This document shows positions 19,373-37,409 of a stretch of 64,000 bases of DNA, piece after piece. The stretch comes from Escherichia coli (lineage in GTDB: Bacteria; Pseudomonadota; Gammaproteobacteria; Enterobacterales; Enterobacteriaceae). The stretch lies in assembly GCF_044324875.1 (NCBI RefSeq), contig NZ_CP172185.1; one strand, given 5' to 3'. Under the pieces are notes generated by a model. That model saw only the letters and a list, made by a program, of their open reading frames with translations. It was not told where the DNA came from and did no database searches. A program made the position numbers and the translations under genes. Within the stretch, counting starts at the first letter, position 1; every line of letters starts with the position of its first letter.

Positions 19373-21106
19373 ATGGAAATCATGTTACCAAAAAACACCT
19401 TATATGATAGAGAGCAAAATATCTTTTTTGAAAAGGTTACGGCCTTAATTGGAGAAAATGGTGCTGGTAAATCCTCGATTTTACAATCCGTATTTATTAA
19501 CTGTTTAACAAAAAAATATCTACCAGAAACAAAGGTTGTTTGTTTTTCTTCTGGACAAAATGAGAAATACTCAACGTACTTCTCTGATTATCTTTCTCAT
19601 GAAAGGCAAGCAAATAGAGGTCTTAGCTTAGATTGTTGTTATTACGATAAATCATGGTCAAAGTTACTAATATTCATATCCACAATTTGTAAATCAAATG
19701 GTCTTGTTAGAAATTTTTTATGTGAGAAAGGCTATATTGATGTATCAGATGATAAAAATGATGATATATCAAGCAAGCTTACATTGACGGTCCGAGTAAA
19801 TTCGGCTTACGTTAATCGAGTAAAAATGGCATTAGCACAAGAAGAACAAGGTATTGAAAATACTTTAAGGTATTCAGCTTATCATAGGACTTTAGAAAGT
19901 TTCATTAATAATATTGTTAATGCTGATTATGATTTCGAGTCTCCACTTGAAGCTCAAGAGATCTTGCTAACTCATTCAAATTTTTTCAATCCATCATTTG
20001 AGGAAGGAGAAGATTCCTTTTTTGATCCTATCATAACATTTTTCACTCAAGCAGCAGATAATGATTACTTTATAATAAAACCATCATTACAGCTAGAGTT
20101 TAAAAATAATATCGAACTGAATGATATTAGTGATGGGGAATATCAAGTACTCTTTTTATACTCTTTGCTTGATATTTTTGATAGTCCTAATACTTTATTC
20201 TTATTAGATGAGATAGATTCCCATTTACATTACAAGAATATTGAGCTCTTATGGCATCGACTACATAGTATTAATGGTTATGCGATAACAACCACCCATC
20301 TATTAGACTCAATTACAGCTACTGATAATGATTTTAAAAACTTAAAGATTGTTGATAAAGGAAAAATAAAAGAAGATGATAAAATAAAAACTATAATAGA
20401 ACGTTTATCTGTCTTGACAAGAATATCAGACGTACAGTTCGAAGTGTGTCGTAAACTAGAAAACATTGTATTGATGGATGATTATAATGATTGGACTATT
20501 TTTTATGCCTTAGCAAAGAAAAAAGGACTTGATGTATCAAAGTTAGATGGCCTCCATGCAATAAAACAGTCCTCTGGTTACGATAATTTAAATCAAGAGT
20601 TCGCAAAACCAAAAATAGAGTGGATTAATTCGCTTTTAAATGTAAATACTGATAAAAAAGTCAAAAAAATATTCATGATCTGCGACAAAGATGAGGCTCC
20701 AATTACCTATCAGAAAGATGGAGTTCAAGTCAATGGAAGTGAATGTTCAAAACATATAGCGAAGTTAGAAAATAAAAACAAAAATAAAATATATCTCCTT
20801 GTCTGGAAAAGAAGAGAAATAAAAAACTACTTATTATCTTATACGGCATTGTCTCATCATGGATTTATCGGGCAAATAAACAATGGTGATCTGCCGGCTA
20901 ACAGTTATTTAAAAGAAAACGATCCTGGAGATAATTCAGCAATTAGCCGGCTTAACGTAAAACATTGCATCACAAAAATAATTGATTCTGATGGTATAGG
21001 ATTAGATATATCAAAACTTTACTCATATATAGAACTTATACCACCTGCTGAGATCAGTGAAGATATAGTGAATATGTACAATTTTTTGGTGGAGAAATTA
21101 AAATGA
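19373..21106 (+). CDS. OLD-family-like ABC ATPase with C-terminal Toprim-like region (putative nuclease/ATPase component)
   Basis: Walker A GENGAGKSS, ABC-signature-like ISDGEYQ, Walker B LFLLDEIDSHLH, H-loop TTTH; C-terminal DxD-type motif FMICDKDE; about 28% GC. Confidence 0.75.
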   Translation: MEIMLPKNTLYDREQNIFFEKVTALIGENGAGKSSILQSVFINCLTKKYLPETKVVCFSSGQNEKYSTYFSDYLSHERQANRGLSLDCCYYDKSWSKLLIFISTICKSNGLVRNFLCEKGYIDVSDDKNDDISSKLTLTVRVNSAYVNRVKMALAQEEQGIENTLRYSAYHRTLESFINNIVNADYDFESPLEAQEILLTHSNFFNPSFEEGEDSFFDPIITFFTQAADNDYFIIKPSLQLEFKNNIELNDISDGEYQVLFLYSLLDIFDSPNTLFLLDEIDSHLHYKNIELLWHRLHSINGYAITTTHLLDSITATDNDFKNLKIVDKGKIKEDDKIKTIIERLSVLTRISDVQFEVCRKLENIVLMDDYNDWTIFYALAKKKGLDVSKLDGLHAIKQSSGYDNLNQEFAKPKIEWINSLLNVNTDKKVKKIFMICDKDEAPITYQKDGVQVNGSECSKHIAKLENKNKNKIYLLVWKRREIKNYLLSYTALSHHGFIGQINNGDLPANSYLKENDPGDNSAISRLNVKHCITKIIDSDGIGLDISKLYSYIELIPPAEISEDIVNMYNFLVEKLK

Positions 21107-23004
21107 ACACCTCTTTATTTGAAGATCTACTTACACTAATCAAGAAAAAGAGTTCGATAAGAAATACAGAACAAGCAGTAGAGCTAATTTCATTATTTAT
21201 TTTTTTACATTATATAAAATTATATTTTTATGAAAATGATAAAAGATTCTCAGATATAAAAAACATATCAAGCAACAACATTAATGAAATTAAATATTAT
21301 TACCAGCAACTATATGAAAGCTTTATTTTATCGATAGATATAAAAAATATAAACCACGACATGCTTGAAAATCTCAGGAGCAAGATAGGTTTTTTAATTA
21401 ATAACATCAATAACCATGAAATAATCAAATATATAGATTATTCTCTTTCGCATATACATTCACTTACAGAGTTCTATCAATATGCAAATTCTTATCAATC
21501 TTTAATTCTTAGGATGGTTAATGAATCGGGTCGTTCAGGGGAATATGTTACTCCATCTGCTTTAGTTCAGCTCATGGTTGAAATGTTATCACCTACAGAT
21601 GGCACATCAATCTACGACCCAGCATGTGGAACTGGGGGTTTATTAATAGAGTCAGCACGATATATTAAAGGCAACAGTTTAAACAAAAACTTTAATTATT
21701 CCCTTATTGGTAATGACACATCATCATTTGCCTGTCTAATCTCAATTGTTAACCTTTTAATCAATAAAGAATTTAACTTTGAAATAATACTAAAAGATAG
21801 CTTAGATATAAATTATAAGAATAAAAAATATGACTTTGTTTTAACTAACCCACCATTTGGGAAAAAGAGCGGTTGGGATAATATTCATATTGACACACAT
21901 TATAAAGGACCTAATCTAGACTATTACTTCCTGGAGCATGTTATTGACTCTCTCGCTGTTAATGGCAAAGCAGCCATAATATTACCAGAGCGTTTTTTAT
22001 ATGATGTGAGTAAAGAGTGCATCACTCTTAAAGATAAGATCTTCCAAAATTATAATTTAGATTGTATTTTATCTATACCGTCAGGTGCATTGCTTCCTTA
22101 CACTGCAGTAAAATTATGTATTCTTTTTATAAGTAATTCTGGCCCAACAGATAGAATATTTTTCTACAATTTAAATAATGGTAAAAAATACTCACGTACA
22201 AATACTATAAAATTCGATGATTTTATAGATTTTTTAGAGTCAGCAAAAAATAGAACAATAACTGAACACTCCTGGATTATCAATATTAGTGATACACCTT
22301 CATCTTATAACTTACTCTTAAAAGATAAAGAGCGAAACTCATATGAGTTTCTTAGTGATTCTATAGTTAACATTGAACAGACAATACGTAATAATGAATT
22401 GTTACTAACCGAGTTGTCTTTATTAAGAGAAAAAATAGAGATCTTAGAGTCAACAATAAAAAATCATTCGCATGAATATGAATTTGAGAGACTTAAAGTT
22501 GGAAATATTGCATTAGTAAAATCCGGAAATTTATTACAAAAAAATAGACTATTATCCACTGGGCCAATTCCTGTATATGGTGGGAATGGAGTTATTGGAT
22601 ATAATTATGAGGCAATGGAAAATGGTGAAAATATTATTATTGGTAAGGTCGGAGCTCTTTGCGGAAACGTTCGGTATGTTCAAGGTGATATTTGGGTGAC
22701 AAATAACTCATTAATTATTAAGAATTATTTACCAAATAAAGTTTTAACACCCTACCTTGCAAAGTTATTATCTACTTTAAACTTAAGAAAGCTCGCCGTT
22801 GGTACCGCTCAACAATATTTAACCACAACACAAATAAAAAATGTAGAAATTAACATTCCACCTTTAACGACCCAGCATAAATTAAATATGTGGCTTGATG
22901 AGTTAGATAATACCCTTGAACAATATAATAAGCTCATTGAAAAAATAATGAATGATAAGCGAGAACTTAAAGAGAATTTGTATAAAGGTCTTTTAATAGA
23001 ATAG
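21103..23004 (+). CDS. N6-adenine DNA methyltransferase fused to a single HsdS-like target-recognition domain (M-S fusion)
   Basis: Motif I IYDPACGTGGLL, motif IV NPPFG, C-terminal TRD-like region; start ATG overlaps upstream stop (ATGA at 21103-21106); GGAG ribosome-binding site at 21091-21094. Confidence 0.8.
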   Translation: MNTSLFEDLLTLIKKKSSIRNTEQAVELISLFIFLHYIKLYFYENDKRFSDIKNISSNNINEIKYYYQQLYESFILSIDIKNINHDMLENLRSKIGFLINNINNHEIIKYIDYSLSHIHSLTEFYQYANSYQSLILRMVNESGRSGEYVTPSALVQLMVEMLSPTDGTSIYDPACGTGGLLIESARYIKGNSLNKNFNYSLIGNDTSSFACLISIVNLLINKEFNFEIILKDSLDINYKNKKYDFVLTNPPFGKKSGWDNIHIDTHYKGPNLDYYFLEHVIDSLAVNGKAAIILPERFLYDVSKECITLKDKIFQNYNLDCILSIPSGALLPYTAVKLCILFISNSGPTDRIFFYNLNNGKKYSRTNTIKFDDFIDFLESAKNRTITEHSWIINISDTPSSYNLLLKDKERNSYEFLSDSIVNIEQTIRNNELLLTELSLLREKIEILESTIKNHSHEYEFERLKVGNIALVKSGNLLQKNRLLSTGPIPVYGGNGVIGYNYEAMENGENIIIGKVGALCGNVRYVQGDIWVTNNSLIIKNYLPNKVLTPYLAKLLSTLNLRKLAVGTAQQYLTTTQIKNVEINIPPLTTQHKLNMWLDELDNTLEQYNKLIEKIMNDKRELKENLYKGLLIE

Positions 23005-23012
23005 ATCACAAT

Positions 23013-23040
23013 AGCAGGGTGTCCATAAAACACCCTGCTA
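23013..23040. terminator. Hairpin between the convergent methyltransferase and hsdR genes (likely bidirectional terminator)
   Basis: agcagggtg / caccctgct inverted repeat with a 9-nt loop. Confidence 0.5.
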
Positions 23041-23084
23041 CTGGTTGCAAGTAAGTTGCAATATCTGTACTGCTGAAGCTACTA

Positions 23085-26000
23085 TTAATAATGCTCCTCA
23101 ATATACCCATACGCCTTCTGGAACAACTCTTTATCTTTCCCTAGTCCAAACTGGGCCAAGGTCAGTAAAAGCGCCTTTTGGATTTCGCGCGGGCCACTGT
23201 TGGAATTTTGCCAGCCATCAAAGCGGGTAGCTTTCACAATTTTATCAATTTGCTCTACAACATCACCGATTAACTTAGGGGTAGTTTCCGGACGTGTTTC
23301 GAGGAAAAGCTTAGTCAACGCCTGTTTATTATCAGCTTCAGTTACTGGGCGCTCGCCCGTTTCGCGCTCGGCTTGAACGGTATCTTTCGCTGCATCCAAC
23401 AGGCCTTTCAACCAGTCAATGGCCTTGATAACACCAGCTTCATAGTCCTGACGCAGTTTTTCAAGGCGCTCGCCCAATGCCACAAATTTAGGATCATGAC
23501 TGCCGCGCAAACGTCCCATAAGATCAATCTCCAGGCGTTTGGCACGTTGTTCCTGCTCTTTAGCGGTCAGGGTAAAAATAGCGTGCTCGTCCATAACCAA
23601 CTCGTCAATATCATCGCGAATACGATTGATATCAGTATGCTCATGGATCATCTTGATTGTTTCGGGGCCAAGGGCAGCCCAAACAAGCGCACCTGTCTGC
23701 CCTACCGGACGCACCGATTCATAAATTTGCGCCAGCCATTTATAGTCCTGACGATAAGAGGTCAAAAAAGGATCTGGGTTGATAGCTGACCATAACTTGG
23801 ATAACACACCAAAGCTGGCAGCGAATTCATCGCGTTTCTCGTTGGTCGGCAGGCATTCCTGCGCGGCCATAATACCTTCAAAACCAGCTATGGACCGATC
23901 CACACCAGGGAAGAAGGACAAACATTTATTCAGTTGTAACGGCAATAGCTCTTTAAATGCCTCAATTCCCTCTACAACTCCTTCAATTTCTTCAGGGTTA
24001 TAGGCCAGAGCGGTACGCAGATTTTCGAAAACGCCGAGGTAGTCGATAATTAATCCCATGTCCTTGCGTACAGTATCGGTTTCGTACAACCGGTTGGTTC
24101 GGCACATGGCCTGAAGAAGAGTATGATCGCGTAGAGGCTTATCGAGGTACATGCAGTAGCAAATCGGGGCATCAAAGCCCGTAAGCAGCTTGGCGGTTAC
24201 GATAATAAGCTGTAATGGATGTTCAGGATCTTTAAAGCATTCAATCAGATCCTTTTGCACCTGTTCTTCGGCATCAATGTGCTGCCAGCGTTCAAAATCG
24301 ACTTGTTTGACTGGCAGCTCCAACTCATCATGCCATTTAAGCCAATCCTTGTTGAGCTTGTCTTTTTTGCCACCCTCTTCAACTTTAACCGGAGCCTGGT
24401 CAACGTTCATAACCACTTCAACCGCATCAAAACCAAGCTTTTCACCGAGCAAATAATACATCTGCACACAGGCTTCGCGATCGTATACCACAACCATGCC
24501 TTTCATCTTTTTCGGCATAACATGGTTGGTAAAATGCTCAGCAATATCATTACTCACCGCAGCCATACGCCTAGGGGATTTCAGCATGATTGCCAGCTTG
24601 CCTGCACGCCTGGACAATGCTGCTTTTTCTTCTTCATCCAGGTTGTTTTCGGTAGCCAGTTGCTCGAACTCTTCATTGATGGCATCACGATCCACTCGGA
24701 GTTCAGCCAGCCGAGGTTCGAACTTCACCGGGTTAGTTGCGCCATCCCGGATCGACTGCTTATAGCTATAGCGGCTCATATAGCGACCCGGATCTTCTTC
24801 GGCACCGAACAATTTGAACGTATTACGATCAATGCCAGAAATCGGAGTACCTGTCAGGCCATAGAAGTGGGCATTGGGCAACGCCCAGCGCATTTTCTCG
24901 CCTAATCCCCCTTCCTGTGTACGGTGAGCTTCGTCAACCAACACAATGATATTGTCACGGTTGTTCAGGCCATTAGGGTTGCTATCGTCAATTTCGATAT
25001 CTTTAAATTTAAAGATGGTGGTGATTAAAATGCCACGGCTGTCTTGTTCAATGTATTCACCCAGCTTTTTGCAGCTTTGCACTTTAATCAGATTCTTAAC
25101 GTCGGCTCCACCAAAGGTCTCGTTAATTTGGCTGTCCAGATCTCGCCGGTCCACAACGATAAGTACCGTCGGGTTTTTTAACGCATTATCGGCACGTAGC
25201 ATTTTGGCGGCGTAAAGCATCAACAAGGATTTACCCGATCCCTGGAAATGCCAAATAAGACCTTTTTTTGGATAGCCTCTGCGAACACGCTCAACGATTT
25301 GTTTTGCTGCTTCAAATTGCGGATAACGCGGCAAGATTTTAACGCGTTTAGGTGGAGTATTTTTGCCCGTTTTGACGGTTGAAAATAATGCGAAAGATTC
25401 CAGTAACTGCAATAAGGTTTGCGGATTTAACAAACTCTCACAGCTATTGAGTACCGATGCTAATCCCGGCAGAATCTCATCACGAAGCTCAGTATTATGC
25501 CAGGGTCCCCAGTCTTTAACTCGGGCATTAATGGCACCATAGGCAAAGGTTTTTCCTTCGCTGGCAAAGCACAGCAAGTTAGGTACAAAGAAAGATTCAA
25601 CATTTTTCCAGTAGTACTTTTTGCCACCCATGAAATCGGCAGCACCGTCTTGCCAGGTCACGCTGGGGCGTGTTGCGGTTTTAACTTCGCCCACTACTAG
25701 CGGTATGCCGTTCACATAAAGAACAATATCAAAATAGACTTCAGTGGCCGCGATATAGCGAACCTGCTGCGCCACCACAAAGTGGTTGTTCTCTATATTG
25801 TCAAAATCAATCAGATTGATGGTGATATGGTCGCCATTCTTACCAAAAGGCAAGGTTTTGTCGGCCATCAACCATTCCTGGAAGTTTTCATTGGCCTTTA
25901 CCAAGCCGGTATGGCGGGCTTCTAAAACCACTCCTCGCAGTTTGTAAATGACCTCATCGGCATAGTCAGGCTGTCTGCCGATATCAGGGTTTAACGAACA

Positions 26001-26147
26001 AAGCGCGTCTTTTAGCCACTCATCAACGAAGATATCCTGCGCTTGTTTAGGCAGGTTTTCACCGTGGCAGTAAGTCCACTTGACTCCGCTTAAACCTTTT
26101 AAACGGTCGATAATTCCATTTTCTGTGACGGTTTGTTCGTTAAACAT
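23085..26147 (-). CDS. hsdR: Type I restriction enzyme R subunit (HsdR)
   Basis: 1020 aa; PD-(D/E)xK-like DIVLYVNGIPLVVGEVK, Walker A QGSGKS, DEAH box VDEAHRTQ, GLTGTP. Confidence 0.9.
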   Translation of the reverse strand: MFNEQTVTENGIIDRLKGLSGVKWTYCHGENLPKQAQDIFVDEWLKDALCSLNPDIGRQPDYADEVIYKLRGVVLEARHTGLVKANENFQEWLMADKTLPFGKNGDHITINLIDFDNIENNHFVVAQQVRYIAATEVYFDIVLYVNGIPLVVGEVKTATRPSVTWQDGAADFMGGKKYYWKNVESFFVPNLLCFASEGKTFAYGAINARVKDWGPWHNTELRDEILPGLASVLNSCESLLNPQTLLQLLESFALFSTVKTGKNTPPKRVKILPRYPQFEAAKQIVERVRRGYPKKGLIWHFQGSGKSLLMLYAAKMLRADNALKNPTVLIVVDRRDLDSQINETFGGADVKNLIKVQSCKKLGEYIEQDSRGILITTIFKFKDIEIDDSNPNGLNNRDNIIVLVDEAHRTQEGGLGEKMRWALPNAHFYGLTGTPISGIDRNTFKLFGAEEDPGRYMSRYSYKQSIRDGATNPVKFEPRLAELRVDRDAINEEFEQLATENNLDEEEKAALSRRAGKLAIMLKSPRRMAAVSNDIAEHFTNHVMPKKMKGMVVVYDREACVQMYYLLGEKLGFDAVEVVMNVDQAPVKVEEGGKKDKLNKDWLKWHDELELPVKQVDFERWQHIDAEEQVQKDLIECFKDPEHPLQLIIVTAKLLTGFDAPICYCMYLDKPLRDHTLLQAMCRTNRLYETDTVRKDMGLIIDYLGVFENLRTALAYNPEEIEGVVEGIEAFKELLPLQLNKCLSFFPGVDRSIAGFEGIMAAQECLPTNEKRDEFAASFGVLSKLWSAINPDPFLTSYRQDYKWLAQIYESVRPVGQTGALVWAALGPETIKMIHEHTDINRIRDDIDELVMDEHAIFTLTAKEQEQRAKRLEIDLMGRLRGSHDPKFVALGERLEKLRQDYEAGVIKAIDWLKGLLDAAKDTVQAERETGERPVTEADNKQALTKLFLETRPETTPKLIGDVVEQIDKIVKATRFDGWQNSNSGPREIQKALLLTLAQFGLGKDKELFQKAYGYIEEHY

Positions 26148-26151
26148 ATAG

Positions 26152-27306
26152 TCAAACTCCTAGAAGCTCATATATTAATGCTTGTCTAAGATTAAAATAA
26201 TGTTCTTTTTTATCTCTCAGCACCTTCAATATTTTCTCGAGCGATTCCAATTTTTTTACTAAAATATCTGAGTCAGTAAATAATTTATTATGAATGAAGA
26301 TATCATCAAAAACTCTTACTGTTACTCTTTGCCTACCTGAAGTGCCTTCCATGTGATGAAGAGCATAATGCCTAAATTTCTTTGTTTTGATTATGTAATA
26401 ACCAAGTTTCTTTAGAAAATGATCTTCAAATTTTGATCTCATCACTATAAACTCAGTGGATCCCACAGCTATACTCTCTTCTGCAAGAAAATCAACAAAT
26501 GCTGCCTTACCATTTTCAAAACAAGGTGTGATTCTAGCCAAAAGGATATCATCTTTTCTAAATTTCATACCAGAAGATTTTCCTGACTTAGTTTCTCCTT
26601 TATAGTCTATATATGGAAGTTCAACATCTAAAGATGCCATATCAACATATGGTATTATTTCATCCACTGACCCAATCTTTGGATTAATTAAAAAAGAATC
26701 ACTTAATGAACTCCAGTCATTCTTTTTCCCAGCTGATGTTGTCGCCAGATAAATACCTACTTCAGCATCTATAACATCCTGATATAACTTTCTTACCGAT
26801 AATATAGTTTCATTAAGATGCATATAGCATTCATGGAATTTGTCAAGAATAACTAAGGCACTATTTTGTTTTTCTCTATCGAGAATATTAAATTTAAAGC
26901 TTACAACATCCTTCCATCTAATATGCTTATTAGTTGAACCAATAGTATTTTTTAACGTATGCTCAGCAAAACTTTCAGATTGAAAGATATATGGAAGCAA
27001 TCGACTTTCAAAACCATGATATTGCTTTGGCGTACATACAATAACCTTCTCACCACAATATCCTTCTCTATCAGCTATCGCGACTTTTCTTAACTGCGGA
27101 TTTCTAGTTAGATAAAGTATGTCTCCTGGGCTAAATTTCTTCCCAAAAGTTGGCCCCATATCATCAGGGGCGATTCCGTAGCGAGAGAAAAATATTTCAC
27201 AATTATCAAAGTCTTCTCCTCTTACACAATATTTAACATTAGGATCTAAATTATTCTTCTCCCATATGTTTTTTTCTTTTACTAAGTCAGAAAGAGTAAT
27301 CTTCAT
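26152..27306 (-). CDS. hsdS: Type I restriction-modification specificity subunit (HsdS), two TRDs
   Basis: 384 aa with two TRD-like halves and conserved HsdS segments; overlaps hsdM stop by 4 bp; very AT-rich. Confidence 0.85.
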   Translation of the reverse strand: MKITLSDLVKEKNIWEKNNLDPNVKYCVRGEDFDNCEIFFSRYGIAPDDMGPTFGKKFSPGDILYLTRNPQLRKVAIADREGYCGEKVIVCTPKQYHGFESRLLPYIFQSESFAEHTLKNTIGSTNKHIRWKDVVSFKFNILDREKQNSALVILDKFHECYMHLNETILSVRKLYQDVIDAEVGIYLATTSAGKKNDWSSLSDSFLINPKIGSVDEIIPYVDMASLDVELPYIDYKGETKSGKSSGMKFRKDDILLARITPCFENGKAAFVDFLAEESIAVGSTEFIVMRSKFEDHFLKKLGYYIIKTKKFRHYALHHMEGTSGRQRVTVRVFDDIFIHNKLFTDSDILVKKLESLEKILKVLRDKKEHYFNLRQALIYELLGV

Positions 27307-28766
27307 ATCTTTCCTCCATTAAAAAAGTAAGAAGAGTTCATATTCAATTCTTTTCTAAACGATTGCCATTTACTTATCTCCCTTGAGAGATTTAAATCTT
27401 TAAATTCTTTTTCTATATACACAGGAACATTTAGATTAAAATCGTTATCTTCGACTTCCTCGATAGAGGCTATATACGTAGTAATATTAGAGACATCCTT
27501 CAAACTAATGTAAGAGTTATAGATATTCATTATATTAATATCATTTAAATAAGCATGATTCCTAGTGGTAATAAGTTCATCATAGGCATTTATAAATAAT
27601 ATTTTCCCTTTTAGCTCAGTTCGTTTATTGCAATTCAACAAAATAATACATGCCGGCATAGGTGAATTATAAAACAATCCAGGGCCAAGACTAATTACAC
27701 ATTCAATAATATCTGTTTGAATAATTTTTTCTCTGAGCTGTTTCTCACTTTCTCTGAAGAGAACTCCATTTGGCCAGAGCATAGCTGCGCGACCAGTATC
27801 AGGCTTCAGGCTTTTAATTATATGGGTATAAAACGCATAATCAGCACAGCCCTGCGGTGGTACACCATAAAGATTACGACCATACGGATCAGCGGCAAAC
27901 TTGTCACGATTCCATTTCTTAATGGAGTACGGTGGGTTAGCAAAAATCACATCAAACTGCTTGAGCCGATCGTTTTCAATAAACTTTGGTTCAGCCAGAG
28001 TATCACCGCGCAGCACATCAAATTCTTCAATATCGTGCAGGAACATATTCATACGAGCAATAGCGGAAGTCAGCAGGTTCACTTCCTGGCCATAAAGGTG
28101 CACAGAGCGCCACTCTTCTCCTCTTGCACGAAGATCCATCACTGCATTTAGCAACATCCCTCCAGTGCCACACGTTGGATCATAGGCTGTTTCACCCGGT
28201 TTTAAGCCCATAATGCGCGTCATTAAATGCACGACTGTTCGGTTGGTGTAGAACTCTGCTGCCGTATGACCGGAATCATCAGCGAACTTTTTAATCAGGT
28301 ATTCGTAGGCTTCACCAAGATCATCCTGGGCGACAGATTTAATGCCGAGCGGAATTTTACTGAAATGTTCAATCAGATCAGCCAGCAGATGATCGGGAAG
28401 GCGCTCTTTATTGGTCCACTGTGCATCACCGAAGACGCCATGTAAACGCGGGTTATTGGCTTCAATTAGTCGAAGCGCATTCTGGATCGCTTCACCAATG
28501 TTTTTACTGGTATTGCGTACCTTTTCCCAACTGGCTTCAGAGGGAATATTGAAACGGTGAAACATCGGCATGGCGGCATATTCAGCATCACCTTCATGGA
28601 GTTCCAGCGCTTCGTTATATTCTTCCAGATAGACATCTGACAGGCGTTTGTAAAACAGCAACGGGAAGATATACTGCTTGTAGTCTGATGCGTCAATTTG
28701 GCCACGAAGAAATTCGGCGGCTCCCCAGAGCAGCTCTTCCAGCTTTTTATTACTCATAGTACTCAT
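27303..28766 (-). CDS. hsdM: Type I N6-adenine methyltransferase subunit, paralogue 2 (HsdM)
   Basis: 487 aa; motif I YDPTCGTGGML, motif IV NPPY; start overlaps upstream hsdM stop (ATGA at 28763-28766); 3' third of the gene is markedly AT-rich. Confidence 0.9.
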   Translation of the reverse strand: MSTMSNKKLEELLWGAAEFLRGQIDASDYKQYIFPLLFYKRLSDVYLEEYNEALELHEGDAEYAAMPMFHRFNIPSEASWEKVRNTSKNIGEAIQNALRLIEANNPRLHGVFGDAQWTNKERLPDHLLADLIEHFSKIPLGIKSVAQDDLGEAYEYLIKKFADDSGHTAAEFYTNRTVVHLMTRIMGLKPGETAYDPTCGTGGMLLNAVMDLRARGEEWRSVHLYGQEVNLLTSAIARMNMFLHDIEEFDVLRGDTLAEPKFIENDRLKQFDVIFANPPYSIKKWNRDKFAADPYGRNLYGVPPQGCADYAFYTHIIKSLKPDTGRAAMLWPNGVLFRESEKQLREKIIQTDIIECVISLGPGLFYNSPMPACIILLNCNKRTELKGKILFINAYDELITTRNHAYLNDINIMNIYNSYISLKDVSNITTYIASIEEVEDNDFNLNVPVYIEKEFKDLNLSREISKWQSFRKELNMNSSYFFNGGKI

Positions 28767-30262
28767 ACCTCGAACCCTTCTTTGATAAGCAGGGCCTCCA
28801 GCTCCTCTTCTGCTTTTTCCAGCTCAGCCAGCTTCCGTTGAAAATCTTTGAGCGCTTCTTCCACAGTAATGGTTTCTTCTTCGAGTGGCTTTTGCACATA
28901 ACGAGCAATATTTAGATTGAAGTCATTTTCTTCAATCTCCTTCAGAGGAACCCAGCGTGCAACGCCTTCGATTTCTTTTGCATCTGGCCCTTGTTGCGCC
29001 TGGTCATGATAGATTTGGTATATTTCATCGGCCTGCTTGTTGGACAGCGTATTCTGCGCACGCCCCTTGGTATAGATTTCTTCAGCATTGATGATCAATA
29101 CATGATCTTTATGCGCTGCCGGACGTGATTTACGCAACACCAAAATACACGCAGGAATCCCAGTCCCATAGAACAGGTTGGAAGCAACACCAATAATCGC
29201 CACAATGCGATTCTCTTGCAGTAATTTGGTTCGAATTGCCCCCTCTGCGCCGCCACGAAACAGCACACCATGAGGTAATACGACAGCCATACGTCCATTG
29301 TCGTTAAGTGAAGCAAACATATGCTGCACCCAGGCAAAATCACCATTTGTTTTAGGCGCCAGGCCATATCGCTTACGGCCATAGGGATCGTTCGACCACA
29401 GATCGTATCCCCATTCTTTCAAGCTAAACGGTGGGTTGGCAACAACGCAGTCAAAGGTTTCTAAACGATCGCTTTTTAAAAATTTAGGTTCGCGTAACGT
29501 ATCCCCTCGGACAATATCGAAATCTTCCTGTCCATGCAGGAACAGATTCATACGCGCAATAGCTTCCGTCGTTAAGTTCTTTTCCTGACCCTTGATTTTT
29601 AGTAAACGCGGATCACCACCATTTTCTTTTACATGGTGGATGGTCTCAAGCAGCATACCACCGGTACCACAGGCGGGATCGTAGACACTCTCACCGGCTT
29701 TTGGATCAAGAATGTTAACCATCAAACGAACGATAGTTCGTGGGGTATAGAACTCACCGGCTTTCTTATTGGCTTTGTCTGCAAAGCGTTTGATCAGATA
29801 CTCGTATGCGCGCCCCATATCATCGTCACGGACACTAGAAACGCCAAGGTTCACCTTATTGAAGTGATTGAGTAACGTAGCCAGTAACTCATCAGAAAGG
29901 CGTTCTTTATTGGTCCAGCTGGCATCGCCAAAAATGCCATGCAGTTTAGGGTTTGCCAGTTCTATACCACGGAAGGACTCTTTTAAAGCCTGACCGATGT
30001 CCTTGGTCTCAGCGAAAACATCGCGCCAGTGGCAATTTTCAGGTATCTGAATACGGTGAAACATCTTGCCCTTGGCAAGCTCTGCATCCCCAATGCTCTC
30101 CATCGCATCGGCAAATTCTTCGTCATACACGTCACAAATGCGCTTGAAGAACAGGATGGGGAAAATGTACGTTTTGTAATCTGACGCATCAATGGGCCCT
30201 GTAATAATATGGGCTGCATGCCATAGATGGGCCTCGAGATCTTTTAGGTTAATCAGTGTCAT
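28763..30262 (-). CDS. hsdM: Type I N6-adenine methyltransferase subunit, paralogue 1 (HsdM)
   Basis: Start chosen at MTLINLKDLEAHLW (ATG 30260-30262); GEFYTPRTIV, YDPACGTGGML, NPPF motifs; 499 aa. Confidence 0.9.
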   Translation of the reverse strand: MTLINLKDLEAHLWHAAHIITGPIDASDYKTYIFPILFFKRICDVYDEEFADAMESIGDAELAKGKMFHRIQIPENCHWRDVFAETKDIGQALKESFRGIELANPKLHGIFGDASWTNKERLSDELLATLLNHFNKVNLGVSSVRDDDMGRAYEYLIKRFADKANKKAGEFYTPRTIVRLMVNILDPKAGESVYDPACGTGGMLLETIHHVKENGGDPRLLKIKGQEKNLTTEAIARMNLFLHGQEDFDIVRGDTLREPKFLKSDRLETFDCVVANPPFSLKEWGYDLWSNDPYGRKRYGLAPKTNGDFAWVQHMFASLNDNGRMAVVLPHGVLFRGGAEGAIRTKLLQENRIVAIIGVASNLFYGTGIPACILVLRKSRPAAHKDHVLIINAEEIYTKGRAQNTLSNKQADEIYQIYHDQAQQGPDAKEIEGVARWVPLKEIEENDFNLNIARYVQKPLEEETITVEEALKDFQRKLAELEKAEEELEALLIKEGFEV

Positions 30263-30505
30263 TGTTGTCTCTTTTCGATCCTGCAGTGCTTGAACTCTCA
30301 GCAACTCATGGATTTCACAGTAAAAAAGCAAGTAAAGCGATTCCACAACCACCTGAGCGTTCAATATGTATGACGCCTTTACCCAAGTTGCTTAAATCAA
30401 GGAAATTGCCTGAGATAATACTCTGGCATCAGAATGATACCAAGTTGAAGGGCTGATTTCCGCATCAATACCTTGTGGTAATAGGGGATTACTCTTTTAC
30501 CCTTA

Positions 30506-31156
30506 TTGGCGCAAAATGGCGGCATTTCCTCATTTCTCCTTCGGAGCATCTTACGCGCTATAACCACTCTCGTTTTTTCCTATTCCCATGCAGATGAAGC
30601 ACTACGCAATGAACTTGAGAAGCATCTCTCCCCGCTGAAGCGAACCGGGAAGATCACAACATGGCACGATCGCCGCATCGTTCCTGGTCAGGAGTTCGAA
30701 CGTCAGATCGACCACTATTTTTCGCAAGCAGATATCATCCTGATCCTGATCAGCAGTGACTTTATTGCTTCTGATTACTGCTATCAGGTAGAGATGAAAA
30801 ACGCACTGGAACGGCATGACCGGGGCGAGGCGGTGGTCATTCCGGTAATTTTAAGAAACTGTGCATGGCATCAGTTAGAATTCGGCAGCATTATGGCGGC
30901 GACTATCGACGGTAAACCCATCACTAAGTTTGCCACCCACGATGAAGGCTACGTTCAGGTCGTCGAGGCTGTCTCGCGTGCCATTGCCCGGATGGAAGCC
31001 AAAAAACCACAGCAAACCATACATATCCCTTCACCGGCTCCGGCGAATCCGATCTTTCAGGGAGTAGATTCCGTTTTTACACCGTGTTCAAGCAACCTTA
31101 TTCTATCTGTTATAGCCAGGATAATGTTGTTCGAAACAGTATTAACGAAACTCTAA
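30506..31156 (+). CDS. TIR-domain protein (ThsB-like, single-domain); start codon uncertain (TTG)
   Basis: LVFSYSHADE...ADIILILISSDFIASDYCYQVEMKNAL matches bacterial TIR core motifs; no in-frame ATG upstream of the TIR beta-strand, and no clear ribosome-binding site. Confidence 0.6.
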   Translation: MAQNGGISSFLLRSILRAITTLVFSYSHADEALRNELEKHLSPLKRTGKITTWHDRRIVPGQEFERQIDHYFSQADIILILISSDFIASDYCYQVEMKNALERHDRGEAVVIPVILRNCAWHQLEFGSIMAATIDGKPITKFATHDEGYVQVVEAVSRAIARMEAKKPQQTIHIPSPAPANPIFQGVDSVFTPCSSNLILSVIARIMLFETVLTKL

Positions 31157-32231
31157 GCCTTGCTGATAACAGCCAGACTCTTGGTTTTCGTGCTCTGATG
31201 GGAGGCTTCAGTCGTGGAACTTCACGAGACGAACTATTGACCAATGAAGGTATGTCGGAACATCTCTGGGAAATGTTCTTCGGGCTAATCAAGCAAAGAA
31301 TGTCCCGATAATTTGCCATATCACAGTCGGGCATACTGCCCGATTTTTGTGCTGTCATTATTGGCAATATCTCAATAGGCGTTGAGAAATGGTGCAATTT
31401 AATCTTGCCAGAGCGCTGTTACTTGGGGACGAAATTAATGGGCTCCTGCTGTAGTTACATCAACGCCTGTCTATACAAAAACAGGCGTAGCAAATTCATG
31501 CAGGCAAATACGTTTTCTTAAGCGGCACCAATAGCTTAGTCTCTATATCCACTTGCTCATAGTTTTCCACTAACGCGCGTACCAAATCATCCAGCGTCCA
31601 TAGCGTCAACGGGATTGTAGAACGATCGGCCTCATAACGCGCATCCTTGCTGAATCCGCCGGTACTAACATACAGCCCGCGATCGTCTTTATGGCGGCCA
31701 CCGATAAAGCTACGGATTTGCTGGCTGCTCATCTGTTCCCGCCGGTGCTTCACCTCAACAATAATGCGCGGATTTTCAAACCCAAATCCGTCAGGGGAAG
31801 CAATGATATCTTTCCCACGGTCAGCACCCGCAGGCGATACCTGAGTTTTATATCCCATGCTACGTAATACGCCAGCGACCAGATTCTGCATCTCATCCCA
31901 GTCGAGACGGTTGATACGATCCTTGATGCCTTCAAAAGCAATCATTTCCATGTCGCGCAGAGGATTAGAAACAACCTCATCCTCTTCACCTGAAACAGGT
32001 ACTTCCGGCACGACATCTGAGACAGGCTTTTTGCCCTGCACTAATTCATTCACGGCAAAATCAGGCACCTGAAAAACTGTCAGCGTTGAGCCAAGGGTGT
32101 TTCTGGTTGCATCACTCAGACTATCGCGCTTAATCTCTTCCGTATTCCACTTCACTTTACGGGCGATGCCCATGCCATCTTCAAGCCACTCGGCATGAAA
32201 CTCAAAATCTGAGGCAATTTTCCCTATTAAA

Positions 32232-33515
<1,284 letters not shown>

Positions 33516-33893
33516 TCCGATTAGAAGGTGAATAAGTGATAGCCCAATCGCCTTTCTGCATTTCATTCACAAAGCGCCAAACCTGAGAAGCACCAGAGCG
33601 AACTGTGCCTGGCTTAGTCTGTGGCTCAAGCTCCTGATACCGGATAAACAACTGCTCTCTTGAGCATCCAGGTTTCACATAGGGAGCGAGCTGCGACCAA
33701 CCAATTGCAACAACCTGTTTGTCTCTGAAGTCGTCGTACAATTTTCCGCCATCACCGCGGATCATCCACATCTTAGTCGCCACAATAATTCCTTCTGAAA
33801 ATACTTCATCGTTATACCGGGACGTGATCATTCCATTCAGCCACCTTATCCAGGGGAAAAACACCGATAAGATGGCTAATCAAAATGTCTGTT

Positions 33894-36800
33894 CTAAACC
33901 TGACGCCTATCAAGACTATTATAAATAGCCTCAATCTCACCTTTCAGGTTATCACCAGAGTAAACCATCGATGTATCGTATCGTTCATATCGCGCTTCCC
34001 GTGTCGCACTAAACCAGTTGAACGATCCCACGCATAGCAAACCATCATCACCAATAACAATTTTGCTATGAACACGGTTTACCAGCTTTGTAGCAATACC
34101 CAGCGCATTCAGTTTCTCCAGCGCCGCTTTAAGGTTCTGCTGCTTCTCTTTTCGCTTCTCAAAATCTTTATGTTCAGTGTTATAGCTTCTGTCAGTGACT
34201 ATCGTGACGTTAATTCCACGTGAACACGCCGCAATCATGGAATCAAGAAAACCCGTTTGCTCCAGCTTTTGCCAGGTCAGCCATGGAGAAACTATCGTGA
34301 TGTGTTTATCGGTATTTTCAAACGTCTGATTCAGGAAATTATCATGCTGCTCCACACCATGGAGTGTGTAGATTTTGGTCTCGGAAGTTTTTAAATCCTT
34401 ACGCTCTTTATAATCAAAAGAGAGCGCATTCTTCTCGGACTCAAAGAGATATTTTGCCAGTAATCCCCGCGGAGATGAGGCTGGCTGGATCTCAAACAGG
34501 TCCATATCGCCGAAGACCAGGAAACTGTCCTTCGCACGGGAGACAGCAACGTTCAGCATGCTGTTATCGCTATCAATAAACCCGCCATCCTCATGCTTTG
34601 AATAGACTGGCGAGAATATAACAATCGCTCTTTCCGCCCCCTGAAGAGAATGCACGGTGCCCACGGTGAGCGACGTTTCATTCGCGCCTGTACTGATGCC
34701 TTGTTTACCCAGCGCCTGTTTGATAGTCGATACCTGCGCGCTAAAAGGCGTCACGATACCGACAACTTCATGAAGCGATTTGCCGTAATGCGCTTCAATA
34801 TCTTGCTGGTTATCTGTCAGCCAGGCAGCTATCGTTTCAGCCTCAAGCAAATTATATCGACTTCCGCTACTTGCCAGCGCTCCTTTACCATCAATATGGA
34901 GATAACCCATTGCGGGCATTAAATTGCTCTCTTCACGCCCTCTTTTAGGCAACAACTTACCGTGATAGCAGAGCGTATTACAGTATCCAATAATATTATC
35001 GAAGCACCGGCGGTGTTCATATAGGTACATACCACGAGCCAGTTCGGGATCATATTGATAGCGCGAAGCAAACTGAGCTATTTTCATAACGCTGCCAGAT
35101 GCGGCACTTTTACCAAGGTCTGCGATTGCCGTATATTTCTCGGTAATCTCTTCTTGCGTACTGCCAGACAGAATTTTTTCCGCCAGCATGTTACCGATAT
35201 CAATCGCAGGAGCAATACTCCATATTGGCGGGATCTGCTCCGTATCGCCAATCACTAATGCCTTCTTAGCTAATGCAAACGAGGCAGCAGCCACTTCAGG
35301 AAGCACCTGTCCGGCTTCATCGACAATGAGTAAATCGGCAAAATCATACAAATAACTTTTCTCGAATTTACGTTGTCCTTTGTGCTCACTTATCTGCATA
35401 TTGCCGGGCAGCATATAGCATGTCATCACCACACATGGAATGAGTTTCATTCGACGTTGCCAACGGGCAGTTACTCCTTTAGCGCCTTTTTTCTTCTTCT
35501 CTTCCTGCAGATCATCAATTCTGGCCATATCCATCAGCCAACGACCTTCCCAGTAGTGAGTCGTCAGTAAAAATGCAGGGAAGCGAATCTGCGTATCAGC
35601 CAGTTCATCGGCCTGTGAGAAGCTCAGTTCCTCGTCGCCCTCATACCCTAAATCAAGTGTCAGCCTCTGCCACTCCTGAACCGCCTGCTGTTCTTTAAGA
35701 ACGATTTCATGGGCGGAGTCAATCTGCTTCCGGTATGTTGTTTGCTCGCGTTCAGCGGAATTGAGCAGCCCATCAATATTACGTTCGATAGTTTCAGGAT
35801 CAGACCACTGATTTCCTGCAATCAGCGCGCCTAATTTATCTTCGAGAAACAGCTGTATTTGGTACTGTCGCTTATTGCGAACCGCCGGGAGCCAGGAAAA
35901 TAATGAATAGATCAGTGATTCACCGGCGCGATATTTTTTCCATTCCGTTTTAGCACTCTTCAGTAGAGTAACTTTTTGTTCTTGCCCGGAGAGTAATTTA
36001 TTTAAATTATCGAGATATTGCTCAATGTTATCAGCAATAAGCTCACGCGCCGCCCGAACCTGGCTTAACGTTTGCCATGTTGCGTTCAGTCTTATCAGTT
36101 GCTCGGATTTTGCTGCCAACTGACCATGCAGGAGTTCAATGACCTTTTCAGGGGATGAACACTCTTTTTCAGGAAAGGCTGCCTTAGCCTTCTCCAGATA
36201 AAACAGCAGTGCATCCTCTACATACTCTTTTGACTCAACCTGGTTGAAGAAATCTTCAGTTTGATATTTTTTGGCGGCCTCAGCTTTACGAGTGCTTGAG
36301 GGAAAATAAGCGCCGAAGCTTTTCAGCTCTGGCAACCATCGTCCGGCCATCGCACCGGTGCCCTGGGAAAAATCTTTCCCGAACGCCTCGATAATGTTCG
36401 TGACAGCCTGGTTATTCGTTGAGGTCGCGATAATGACCGGAGGCTCAGATTTTTCGAGAGCCGCTCGGGCCCACTGCGTGGCGATGATAGAAAGCACCAG
36501 CGTGGTTTTTCCGGTTCCCGGAGGGCCATTAACAGCAAGGATATCGCCATGTCTGGCATCCAGAAAATGGCTTAAGGCATCGCGCTGAGCCTTTGCCAGC
36601 GGAAACTTATCTCCGGAGTGTCCAAGCCTGTCGCTGAATTTTGCTCCTGGGGCCAGCAAAGACTCTGCAGCATGAACCTCTCGCGAGGCGAAGCGATTGA
36701 AGAGTGGCACATCCTTCTTGCAAACAAGCAGGTGATCATAAAGCGAAAGGATATGGAAACTGGCACCGCCAGATTGCGCCGTTTTAACAATATAACCGTG

Positions 36801-37409
36801 CTCAGCGAGTTCATATTGCTCAGGATTTTTAATCCAGTCGCCGGCAACGTTCTTCAGCAGCCTCTCTGAATCATCCAGATATTGACGCCAATCCTGCTGC
36901 AAGGCTGCATATCGTGCTTCCCGTTCTTCATCCGTTTCGGCAGTGTTATCAACGCTGTCATCAAACTTGATAGAGAATGACGTATGTGTCGTTTTATATT
37001 TGTCATACTGCTCAATCTCACCAATCGAAAATGCCCCTTTTGGCAAAGGTTCAAGCAGGTCTCTGGGAATGGAGGTCGCTGGCGTCGGGTATAAAAAACC
37101 CTCACGGCTTAGCAAGGCTGGCGTCACTAGCGGGGTAACAATATCAGGCACGCCTGCGGAACGGTCCTTACCATGCTGCAGTAACCGAAAATAAACTTTT
37201 GGGCGCAAGACGACATCGACCGTTTCGACATCGTCTTTTTCTCCCTCAAAAAATTTACTGACAATCGCTTCGTCAAGACGTCCCGCCGCTATCCCATGCC
37301 AGTGAGTGAAATTTTGGGCGTCTTTCCGTTCAAAGCTGCCCTTTCCTGACTCAGCATCCGCAAGCGAGTTGCGCCAGTATGAGGCAAACCCTAAAGCATT
37401 TTCATCCAT
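33894..37409 (-). CDS. SF1 (Upf1/DNA2-like) helicase fused to a C-terminal PLD-family (HKD) nuclease domain; Mokosh type II-like single-protein defence candidate
   Basis: 1171 aa; Walker [11 protein letters not shown], Walker [10 protein letters not shown], motif [19 protein letters not shown]; C-terminal [19 protein letters not shown] (HxK-x4-D-x6-GSxN). Confidence 0.8.

Follow-up and report, generated by a model that had tools for sequence, protein, structure and literature searches.

What is to be made of a Type I restriction-modification (R-M) operon that carries two hsdM genes side by side, the second of which changes its base composition partway along? The operon lies in Escherichia coli DNA (NCBI RefSeq assembly GCF_044324875.1, contig NZ_CP172185.1), in a stretch of 64,000 nucleotides (nt) that is called the window here. 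Our answer, held with good confidence, is that the locus is a complete operon of the PacII-type family, whose members pair N4-methylcytosine (m4C) with N6-methyladenine (m6A), and that its hsdS gene together with a tail of about 180 residues of the second HsdM (M2) was exchanged as a module, the incoming DNA being a deep-branching, very AT-rich cassette. The joint exchange of the recognition gene and the tail of the second methylase is the operon's only unusual feature, and the compositional break marks a recombination module, not a damaged gene.

The four genes run in the order M1-M2-S-R on the minus strand (Table 1). An earlier note, made from the sequence alone, had described this order with its short overlaps and gap, and it is borne out by the open reading frame (ORF) map and by reading the junctions. 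The M1 stop overlaps the M2 ATG in GAGGTATGAGT and the M2 stop overlaps the S ATG in AAGATATGAAG, an ATGA in each case, and hsdS is followed by hsdR after a 4-nt gap (TGA-CTAT-ATG). The RefSeq/PGAP annotation starts M2 at the second ATG, 28757, nine bases downstream, leaving a 5-nt gap and no M1/M2 overlap; the 4-nt overlap is kept in many related loci. A TTG start at 30364 offered for hsdM1 by the ORF finder was rejected as an artefact, which merely extends the gene through the remnant of an upstream helix-turn-helix (HTH) gene. HsdR scores 477.9 bits against the TIGR00348 HsdR family, where the cutoff is 284.55. Its length of 1020 amino acids (aa) is conserved among gammaproteobacterial loci, and it is 100% identical to the HsdR of L001, the commonest other E. 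coli allele at the site.

The two HsdM proteins align over 482 aa with 46% identity and 65% similarity (E = 4e-154), and both match the TIGR00497 hsdM equivalog model. The description of them as homologous along their length yet distinct stands, both being full-length and intact. Motif I (DPxCGTGG) and motif IV (NPPF or NPPY) are kept in both. The M1 translation carries KKAGEFYTPRT, with AGEF, and VANPPFS, with NPPF as motif IV; that of M2 carries HTAAEFYTNRT, with AAEF, and FANPPYS, with NPPY as motif IV, and AAEF and NPPY are invariant across 27 M2-type sequences. In the m4C/m6A family of Type I systems, M1 lies upstream, has NPPF and AGEF, and makes m6A, M2 adjoins S, has NPPY and AAEF, and makes m4C on the opposite strand, and M1, M2 and S form an M1M2S heterotrimer (PMC5100572; PMC9613975). 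By 2016, over 300 systems of this kind had been catalogued, amounting to about 2.5% of Type I, with a reported M1-M2 identity range of 45-55% (Morgan et al. 2016, PMC5100572), and crystal structures of the PacII M1M2S-DNA complex are deposited as 7VRU and 7VS4 (Zhu et al. 2022, PMC9613975).

M1 aligns to M1.PacII (7vru_A) without gaps over residues 1-499, at 85% identity (E = 9e-296). M2 aligns to M2.PacII (7vru_B) at E = 1e-252, in a pattern where identity steps down along the chain from 91% (residues 2-305) to 69% (306-400) and then 26% (401-482). M2 R21 aligns with PacII R29, an arginine whose conservation is confined to M2-type subunits. The Asn-Ser-Pro-Met loop, for which a part in shaping the M2 cytosine pocket has been proposed in this family (PMC5100572; PMC9613975), is present as N367-S368-P369-M370, though it falls inside the swapped segment, and M2 keeps the equivalents of the PacII DNA contacts R346, S376 and R410. 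The M2-type residues kept, including those within the swapped part, are R21, R338, N367-S368-P369-M370, R402 and W467, and the family-invariant residues are retained in the swapped segment. M1 is a predicted m6A methyltransferase, and M2 a predicted m4C methyltransferase of chimeric make, with about the first 305 residues of backbone type and the rest of cassette type. The heteromeric methylase that the earlier note had entertained would match the M1M2S heterotrimer published for the PacII family. Its view that two coupled hsdM genes depart from the canonical arrangement gives way, the layout being that of the published m4C/m6A Type I class (PMC5100572; PMC9613975). Because that family was published in 2016 and its structure in 2022, the two-hsdM layout opens no new question.

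A tandem hsdM duplication at the locus had been proposed in the same note, and a rival explanation can be built on it, in which the duplication is recent, one copy is redundant, orphaned or decaying, and the system works as a canonical single-M enzyme of M2S1 composition. The two M genes are indeed adjacent and homologous over their full length, and a canonical Type I system has a single hsdM. The breadth of the family speaks against this reading. A scan with one genome per species gave 350 relatives, of which the best 80 loci were fetched; these span Gammaproteobacteria, Desulfobacterota, Planctomycetota, Bacteroidota, Synergistia and methanogenic archaea. In all 80, to the extent that the DNA retrieved includes the genes, the order is M1(NPPF/AGEF), 0-2 kb, M2(NPPY/AAEF), S, R, and among them are the published variants in which extra ORFs separate M1 from M2 or M2 is fused to S. 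When 57 systems were aligned jointly, the nearest neighbor was of its own type for 114/114 M1 and M2 sequences, and the neighbor-joining tree of these systems, archaea and Bacteroidota among them, resolves M1 and M2 into two pure clades. Hence the duplication is ancient and family-defining and was not made at this locus.

The window's own proteins argue the same way, as each M is 85-91% identical to its PacII orthologue and only 46% identical to the other, and all catalytic motifs and type-specific residues are kept in both. The biochemistry of PacII also speaks against a redundant copy, for in that system S is bound by M1 before M2, a partial M1S complex is all that M1 yields by itself, and M2 by itself fails to bind S (PMC9613975). 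A recent duplication with a dispensable copy is therefore hardly credible. Monophyly of M1 and M2 is reciprocal across the 57 systems, which span several phyla and archaea; both genes sit in their own clades, and neither is the orphan that had been suspected. A pseudogene or orphan M, or two M genes from separate systems, was likewise considered and is ruled out by the M1/M2 homology, the conserved locus order and the clade structure.

If the two methylases are a family trait, what is particular to this operon is the history of its hsdS end, and this was read from two comparisons. L001 and the window are about 100% identical in hsdR, hsdM1 and residues 1-330 of M2. Between the hsdR start codon (26147) and about 27600-27800, however, the two cannot be aligned, the S proteins being 26% and the M2 tails 23% identical. 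Against L091, the operon of Serratia ureilytica, it is the backbone that is 6-8% divergent, whereas the stretch from 26147 to about 27850 is about 99.3% identical, with 0-4 differences per 300 nt. These mirror-image comparisons are direct evidence of a recent exchange of a block of about 1.7 kb by homologous recombination. By site-by-site phasing, the hsdR-side junction falls at the start codon of hsdR (26127-26147) and the M2-side junction at about 27810-27885 (M2 codons ~295-318), with lower-density mosaic sites 5' of the latter that reach about 28450. The M2 tail of L001 and its first target recognition domain (TRD1) are nearly identical to those of PacII, and L001, judged by its sequence, probably reads CCC in one half-site.

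Trees of the two parts of M2, a separate phylogeny that the earlier note had proposed, place the window differently, in agreement with exchange. In the N-part tree, the window is sister to the other E. coli allele; in the C-part tree, it groups with Shewanella sp. DAU305 and two metagenome contigs. This group branches outside 46 ordinary gamma-type M2 sequences, yet inside the M2 clade, so the donor gene was an M2 and not an M1 or a canonical HsdM. The three-way comparison of the window, L001 and L091, together with the split phylogeny, upholds the proposal that a cassette of hsdS plus the S-contacting C-terminal part of HsdM2 was replaced. In 44 systems of the gamma clade, identity in S is correlated with identity in the middle and C-terminal regions of M2 (rho 0.28 and 0.32); for M1, R and the M2 N-part the correlation is about 0. 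A word-indexed protein search with a 155-aa M2 C-terminal fragment returned 3 matches and was uninformative.

The composition can now be set against these junctions. GC is 0.44-0.50 in hsdM1, in hsdR and for two thirds of hsdM2 from its 5' end; taken by part, it is 0.47 in hsdR, hsdM1 and the 5' part of M2, 0.29 in the last 471 nt of M2, and 0.32 in hsdS. The GC profile and the per-gene GC both confirm the sharp change reported near 27800 and the AT-rich character of hsdS and the 3' third of M2. The drop does not begin until some 50-100 nt inside the M2-side junction, since M2 sequence is strongly conserved over the first codons of the cassette. The GC breakpoint was accordingly dropped as a candidate for the exact recombination junction, which lies those 50-100 nt upstream.

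The shift had been taken as a sign of replacement, and this claim has to be divided: the exchange is real, but the drop is not simply a scar of foreign DNA, given a trend that runs through the family. Of 55 complete family loci, all 55 have an hsdS with lower GC than M1 and R (median -9 points), and 98% have lower GC in the 3' part of M2 than in its 5' part (median -5.4 points). The intragenic drop recurs in relatives of the cassette, whose backbones have a GC of 0.47 and 0.57. Both observations weaken low GC as proof of a foreign low-GC donor, and both favor the explanation that the drop is intrinsic to a fast-evolving, AT-drifting hsdS and M2 3' end and owes nothing to low-GC import. That explanation is compatible with cassette exchange and rivals only the cause of the composition. 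It has to contend with the size of the window drops, -14 and -17 points, both larger than in any of the 55 related loci; they are not noise, and a low-GC donor may have contributed to them. We regard the intrinsic cause as an even call. For the GC break itself, the best reading is a trait that the variable module has throughout the family and that this lineage exaggerates; the break lies just inside a real recombination junction.

Why the exchanged block should include part of M2 can be proposed by analogy with PacII, where the complex is anchored by a four-helix bundle, made up of both connector helices of S together with the M1 and M2 C-terminal tails, and where the M2-TRD interface matters most for activity (PMC9613975). 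Besides its two TRDs, the window HsdS has long connector helices at residues 144-182 and 346-382. Its residues 8-382 match the PADLOC Specificity_I profile PDLC03100 (E = 1e-30), and its AlphaFold2 model, with a mean predicted local distance difference test (pLDDT) score of 90.4, has its best Protein Data Bank fold match in 7vru_C, the S.PacII chain, with a template modeling (TM) score of 0.80 at 18% identity. The single-chain model of M2 has a C-terminal helix at 460-482, which with the two modeled S helices would supply elements of such a bundle. Relatives of HsdS at 61-68% identity are found in loci L088-L090.

By this analogy, M1 (NPPF), M2 (NPPY) and one HsdS would assemble into an asymmetric M1M2S methyltransferase, with M1 docking on HsdS first and then recruiting M2, and with the C-terminal helices of M1 and M2 packing against the two HsdS connector helices in a four-helix bundle. 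TRD1 would offer a cytosine to M2 for m4C, TRD2 the opposite-strand adenine to M1 for m6A, and HsdR would join afterwards for translocation and the cutting of unmodified DNA. The block of about 1.7 kb moved between diverged backbones by homologous recombination at two places, the hsdR start and the conserved 5' part of hsdM2. Its M2 segment would bring the DNA-contact residues, the C-terminal helix and the HsdS-facing region, so that by PacII homology the cassette would hold three of the four helices in the bundle along with both TRDs, and parts that fit each other would travel together. The M1 tail, which lies outside the cassette and is identical in both E. coli alleles, would be the fixed partner. 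Whether S and the M2 tail are held together by co-adaptation or by adjacency alone is a matter of inference.

Several points weigh against our reading of a PacII-type operon with an exchanged module. Cytosine-recognizing TRD1s are otherwise highly conserved, yet the TRD1 of the window HsdS matches that of S.PacII weakly (E = 2.4e-9, ~25% identity). PacII M2 is able to methylate adenine in vitro (PMC5100572; PMC9613975); given this and the divergent TRD1, the allele may read a different half-site, and M2 may even modify a different base. The linkage between S and the M2 tail could be mere physical adjacency rather than co-adaptation. A search of 1.84 billion representative proteins gave no close relative of the M2 C-terminal third, the best full-length match being an M2-type protein at 41% identity. 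In E. coli the HTH gene ahead of the operon is truncated, and in a promoter scan, the sole promoter-like site 5' of the operon is a chance-level match. For this allele the m4C/m6A chemistry, the heterotrimer and restriction are predicted by homology.

The characterized m4C/m6A systems have very similar cytosine TRD1s and read only three cytosine half-sites, CCC, GCC and TCY (PMC5100572). A tentative proposal, which we think has a modest chance of being right, is that the AT-rich cassette shared by this allele, Serratia, Shewanella sp. DAU305 and the two metagenome contigs represents an uncharacterized m4C/m6A sub-lineage, with a TRD1 half-site outside CCC/GCC/TCY or with M2 sent to adenine. 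The exchange unit would then be S plus the C-terminal third of M2, a co-adapted module of three helices and the TRDs, and not hsdS or single TRDs alone. A literature search found no paper reporting the methylome of an E. coli member of the m4C/m6A Type I family.

The truncated HTH gene also bears on another rival explanation, that the operon is a non-functional relic in which the chimeric M2 is mismatched and expression was silenced by loss of the HTH gene and the native promoter, all within a decaying defence island. In keeping with this, the HTH_26 gene 5' of M1 is cut short, neighboring defence genes are damaged (a TIR gene by a 230-bp deletion, another gene split by an IS110-family element), and a consensus scan of the region for promoters and terminators found nothing above chance, with a count of terminator-like sites not above the shuffle expectation. 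The HTH truncation, however, is also present in the common PacII-type E. coli allele, as the identity between the window and L001 continues past 30388. Decay also fits poorly with four intact, tightly coupled ORFs, with an operon that is 99.9-100% conserved in 20 E. coli genomes from human and chicken sources, with the presence of the same cassette in intact Serratia operons on a backbone diverged by 6-8%, and with the family-invariant residues held in the swapped segment. We consider the relic improbable, though less so than a recent duplication. As to distribution, the two-M operon occurs in the leuX island, between nanS and leuX, in 109/5426 complete E. coli genomes and is always chromosomal. 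The cassette of this allele is found at 99.9-100% identity in exactly 20/5426, and E. coli has at least four S alleles at this site.

Upstream of hsdM1, homology to the Serratia operon ends at 30338, and intact HTH genes stand 5' of M1 in L088, L091, L003 and L006. In Serratia and Shewanella, an HTH_26 gene of 73-75 aa directly precedes or overlaps the hsdM1 start (L091 8278-8505; L088 4090-4311), and other HTH genes precede hsdM1 in Vibrio and Vreelandella. The small HTH gene is possibly a controller protein.

On the far side of hsdR, a very AT-rich (GC 0.22-0.34), translationally coupled gene pair at 19373-23004 on the plus strand converges with it. Its first gene encodes a 577-aa ABC/AAA ATPase with weak AriA, PtuA and mad3-like matches, and its second a 633-aa fusion of an HsdM-like methylase with one TRD (MTase_I plus Specificity_I), which matches mad2 of MADS weakly. 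The pair looks like a separate methylase-associated defence module, and it is found in both E. coli alleles, with clusters of single-nucleotide polymorphisms. Beyond hsdM1, a ThsB-like TIR gene at 30506-31156 on the plus strand (PADLOC ThsB, E = 3e-89) is truncated to 216 aa, being 327 aa in L001, and the window is without 230 bp that L001 has at about 31105 in this gene. It is followed on the minus strand at 31496-33864 by a PDC-S02 candidate defence gene, annotated "restriction endonuclease", which is split by a 1.28-kb IS110-family element at 32234-33513 with its transposase ORF at 32340-33320; L001 and L002 carry an intact copy of the defence gene. Next, at 33894-37409 on the minus strand, is a 1171-aa protein with a full-length match to PADLOC MkoC of Mokosh (1688 bits). 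The methylase-TRD pair and the TIR, PDC-S02 and MkoC genes make the leuX-proximal region a dense defence island.

Other loci of the family have features of their own. Many members encode a DUF4062 protein and an unannotated protein of about 490-500 aa between M1 and M2; extra ORFs in this position are mentioned by Morgan et al. (2016, PMC5100572) without an assigned function. RVT_1 reverse-transcriptase genes lie directly 3' of hsdR in several family loci from Vibrio, Vreelandella and metagenomes. Pseudomonas and a Methanomassiliicoccales genome encode natural M2-S fusions of 903-932 aa, which resemble the published Dac11109IV fusion.

Table 1. Features of the operon and its surroundings (window positions) and of related loci (positions preceded by the locus label)
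Feature	Location	Strand	Description and evidence
hsdM1	28763..30262	-	499 aa from ATG at 30262; ORF and translation
hsdM2	27303..28766	-	487 aa; ORF and translation
hsdS	26152..27306	-	384 aa; ORF and translation
hsdR	23085..26147	-	Restriction/translocase subunit, 1020 aa; ORF and translation
Exchanged cassette	26130..27850		~1.7 kb, hsdS plus roughly the last 180 hsdM2 codons; comparisons with L001 and L091
GC-poor tract	26150..27780		GC 0.27-0.37, flanks 0.44-0.50
HTH_26 gene remnant	30269..30346	-	Last ~27 codons; tblastn of the L091 HTH protein, E = 5e-4; blastn extent
Terminator-like hairpin (weak evidence)	23034..23051	-	Just 3' of the hsdR stop; consensus scan
M1-M2 insertions	L006 5916-8004; L088 5811-8004; L009, L010, L012, L013, L017, L020, L023		~2-kb gaps in the seven loci without coordinates
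RVT_1 genes	L003 13767-15422; L006 15167-16129; L089 7046-8770		
M2-S fusions	L027 7941-10739; L028 7974-10739; L065 3250-5961		

What is new here is an uncharacterized specificity cassette lineage in an otherwise published two-methylase Type I family. About 2% of complete E. coli genomes carry a system of the m4C/m6A type, which bears on the interpretation of methylomes and on barriers to transformation and phage. The natural exchange of the last third of M2 along with hsdS fits the PacII assembly data and offers a design rule for specificity swaps in asymmetric enzymes.

The nearest known system is PacII of Pseudomonas alcaligenes, with the same gene set in the same M1-M2-S-R order, the same M1 and M2 motifs, and an S subunit to which the fold of the window HsdS is closest. 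It differs in that the C-terminal 180 or so residues of the window M2 are 69% and then 26% identical and its tail is shorter, and in that the window HsdS is only about 18-25% identical; the CCC-recognizing TRD1 of PacII is not conserved in the window, whereas it is nearly identical in L001. Sen483I of Salmonella enterica SL483 (CCC-N5-RTAG), compared by description, and nine other systems of Morgan et al. 2016 are likewise two-methyltransferase systems, and the window shares an enterobacterial host with Sen483I and has an M1-M2 identity within the 45-55% range. Those ten, however, form a tight group of cytosine TRD1s (CCC, GCC, TCY), and the window TRD1 appears to fall outside it. With the canonical EcoKI and EcoR124I, which have one hsdM and the composition M2S1R2, the window shares the HsdR, HsdS and HsdM families, bipartite recognition by two TRDs, C-terminal helices of M that pack on the coiled coil of S, and allelic variation of specificity. 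Unlike them, it has two distinct intact hsdM genes of different subfamilies and so an inherently asymmetric complex, and its unit of allelic exchange reaches beyond hsdS into the last third of one of the M genes.

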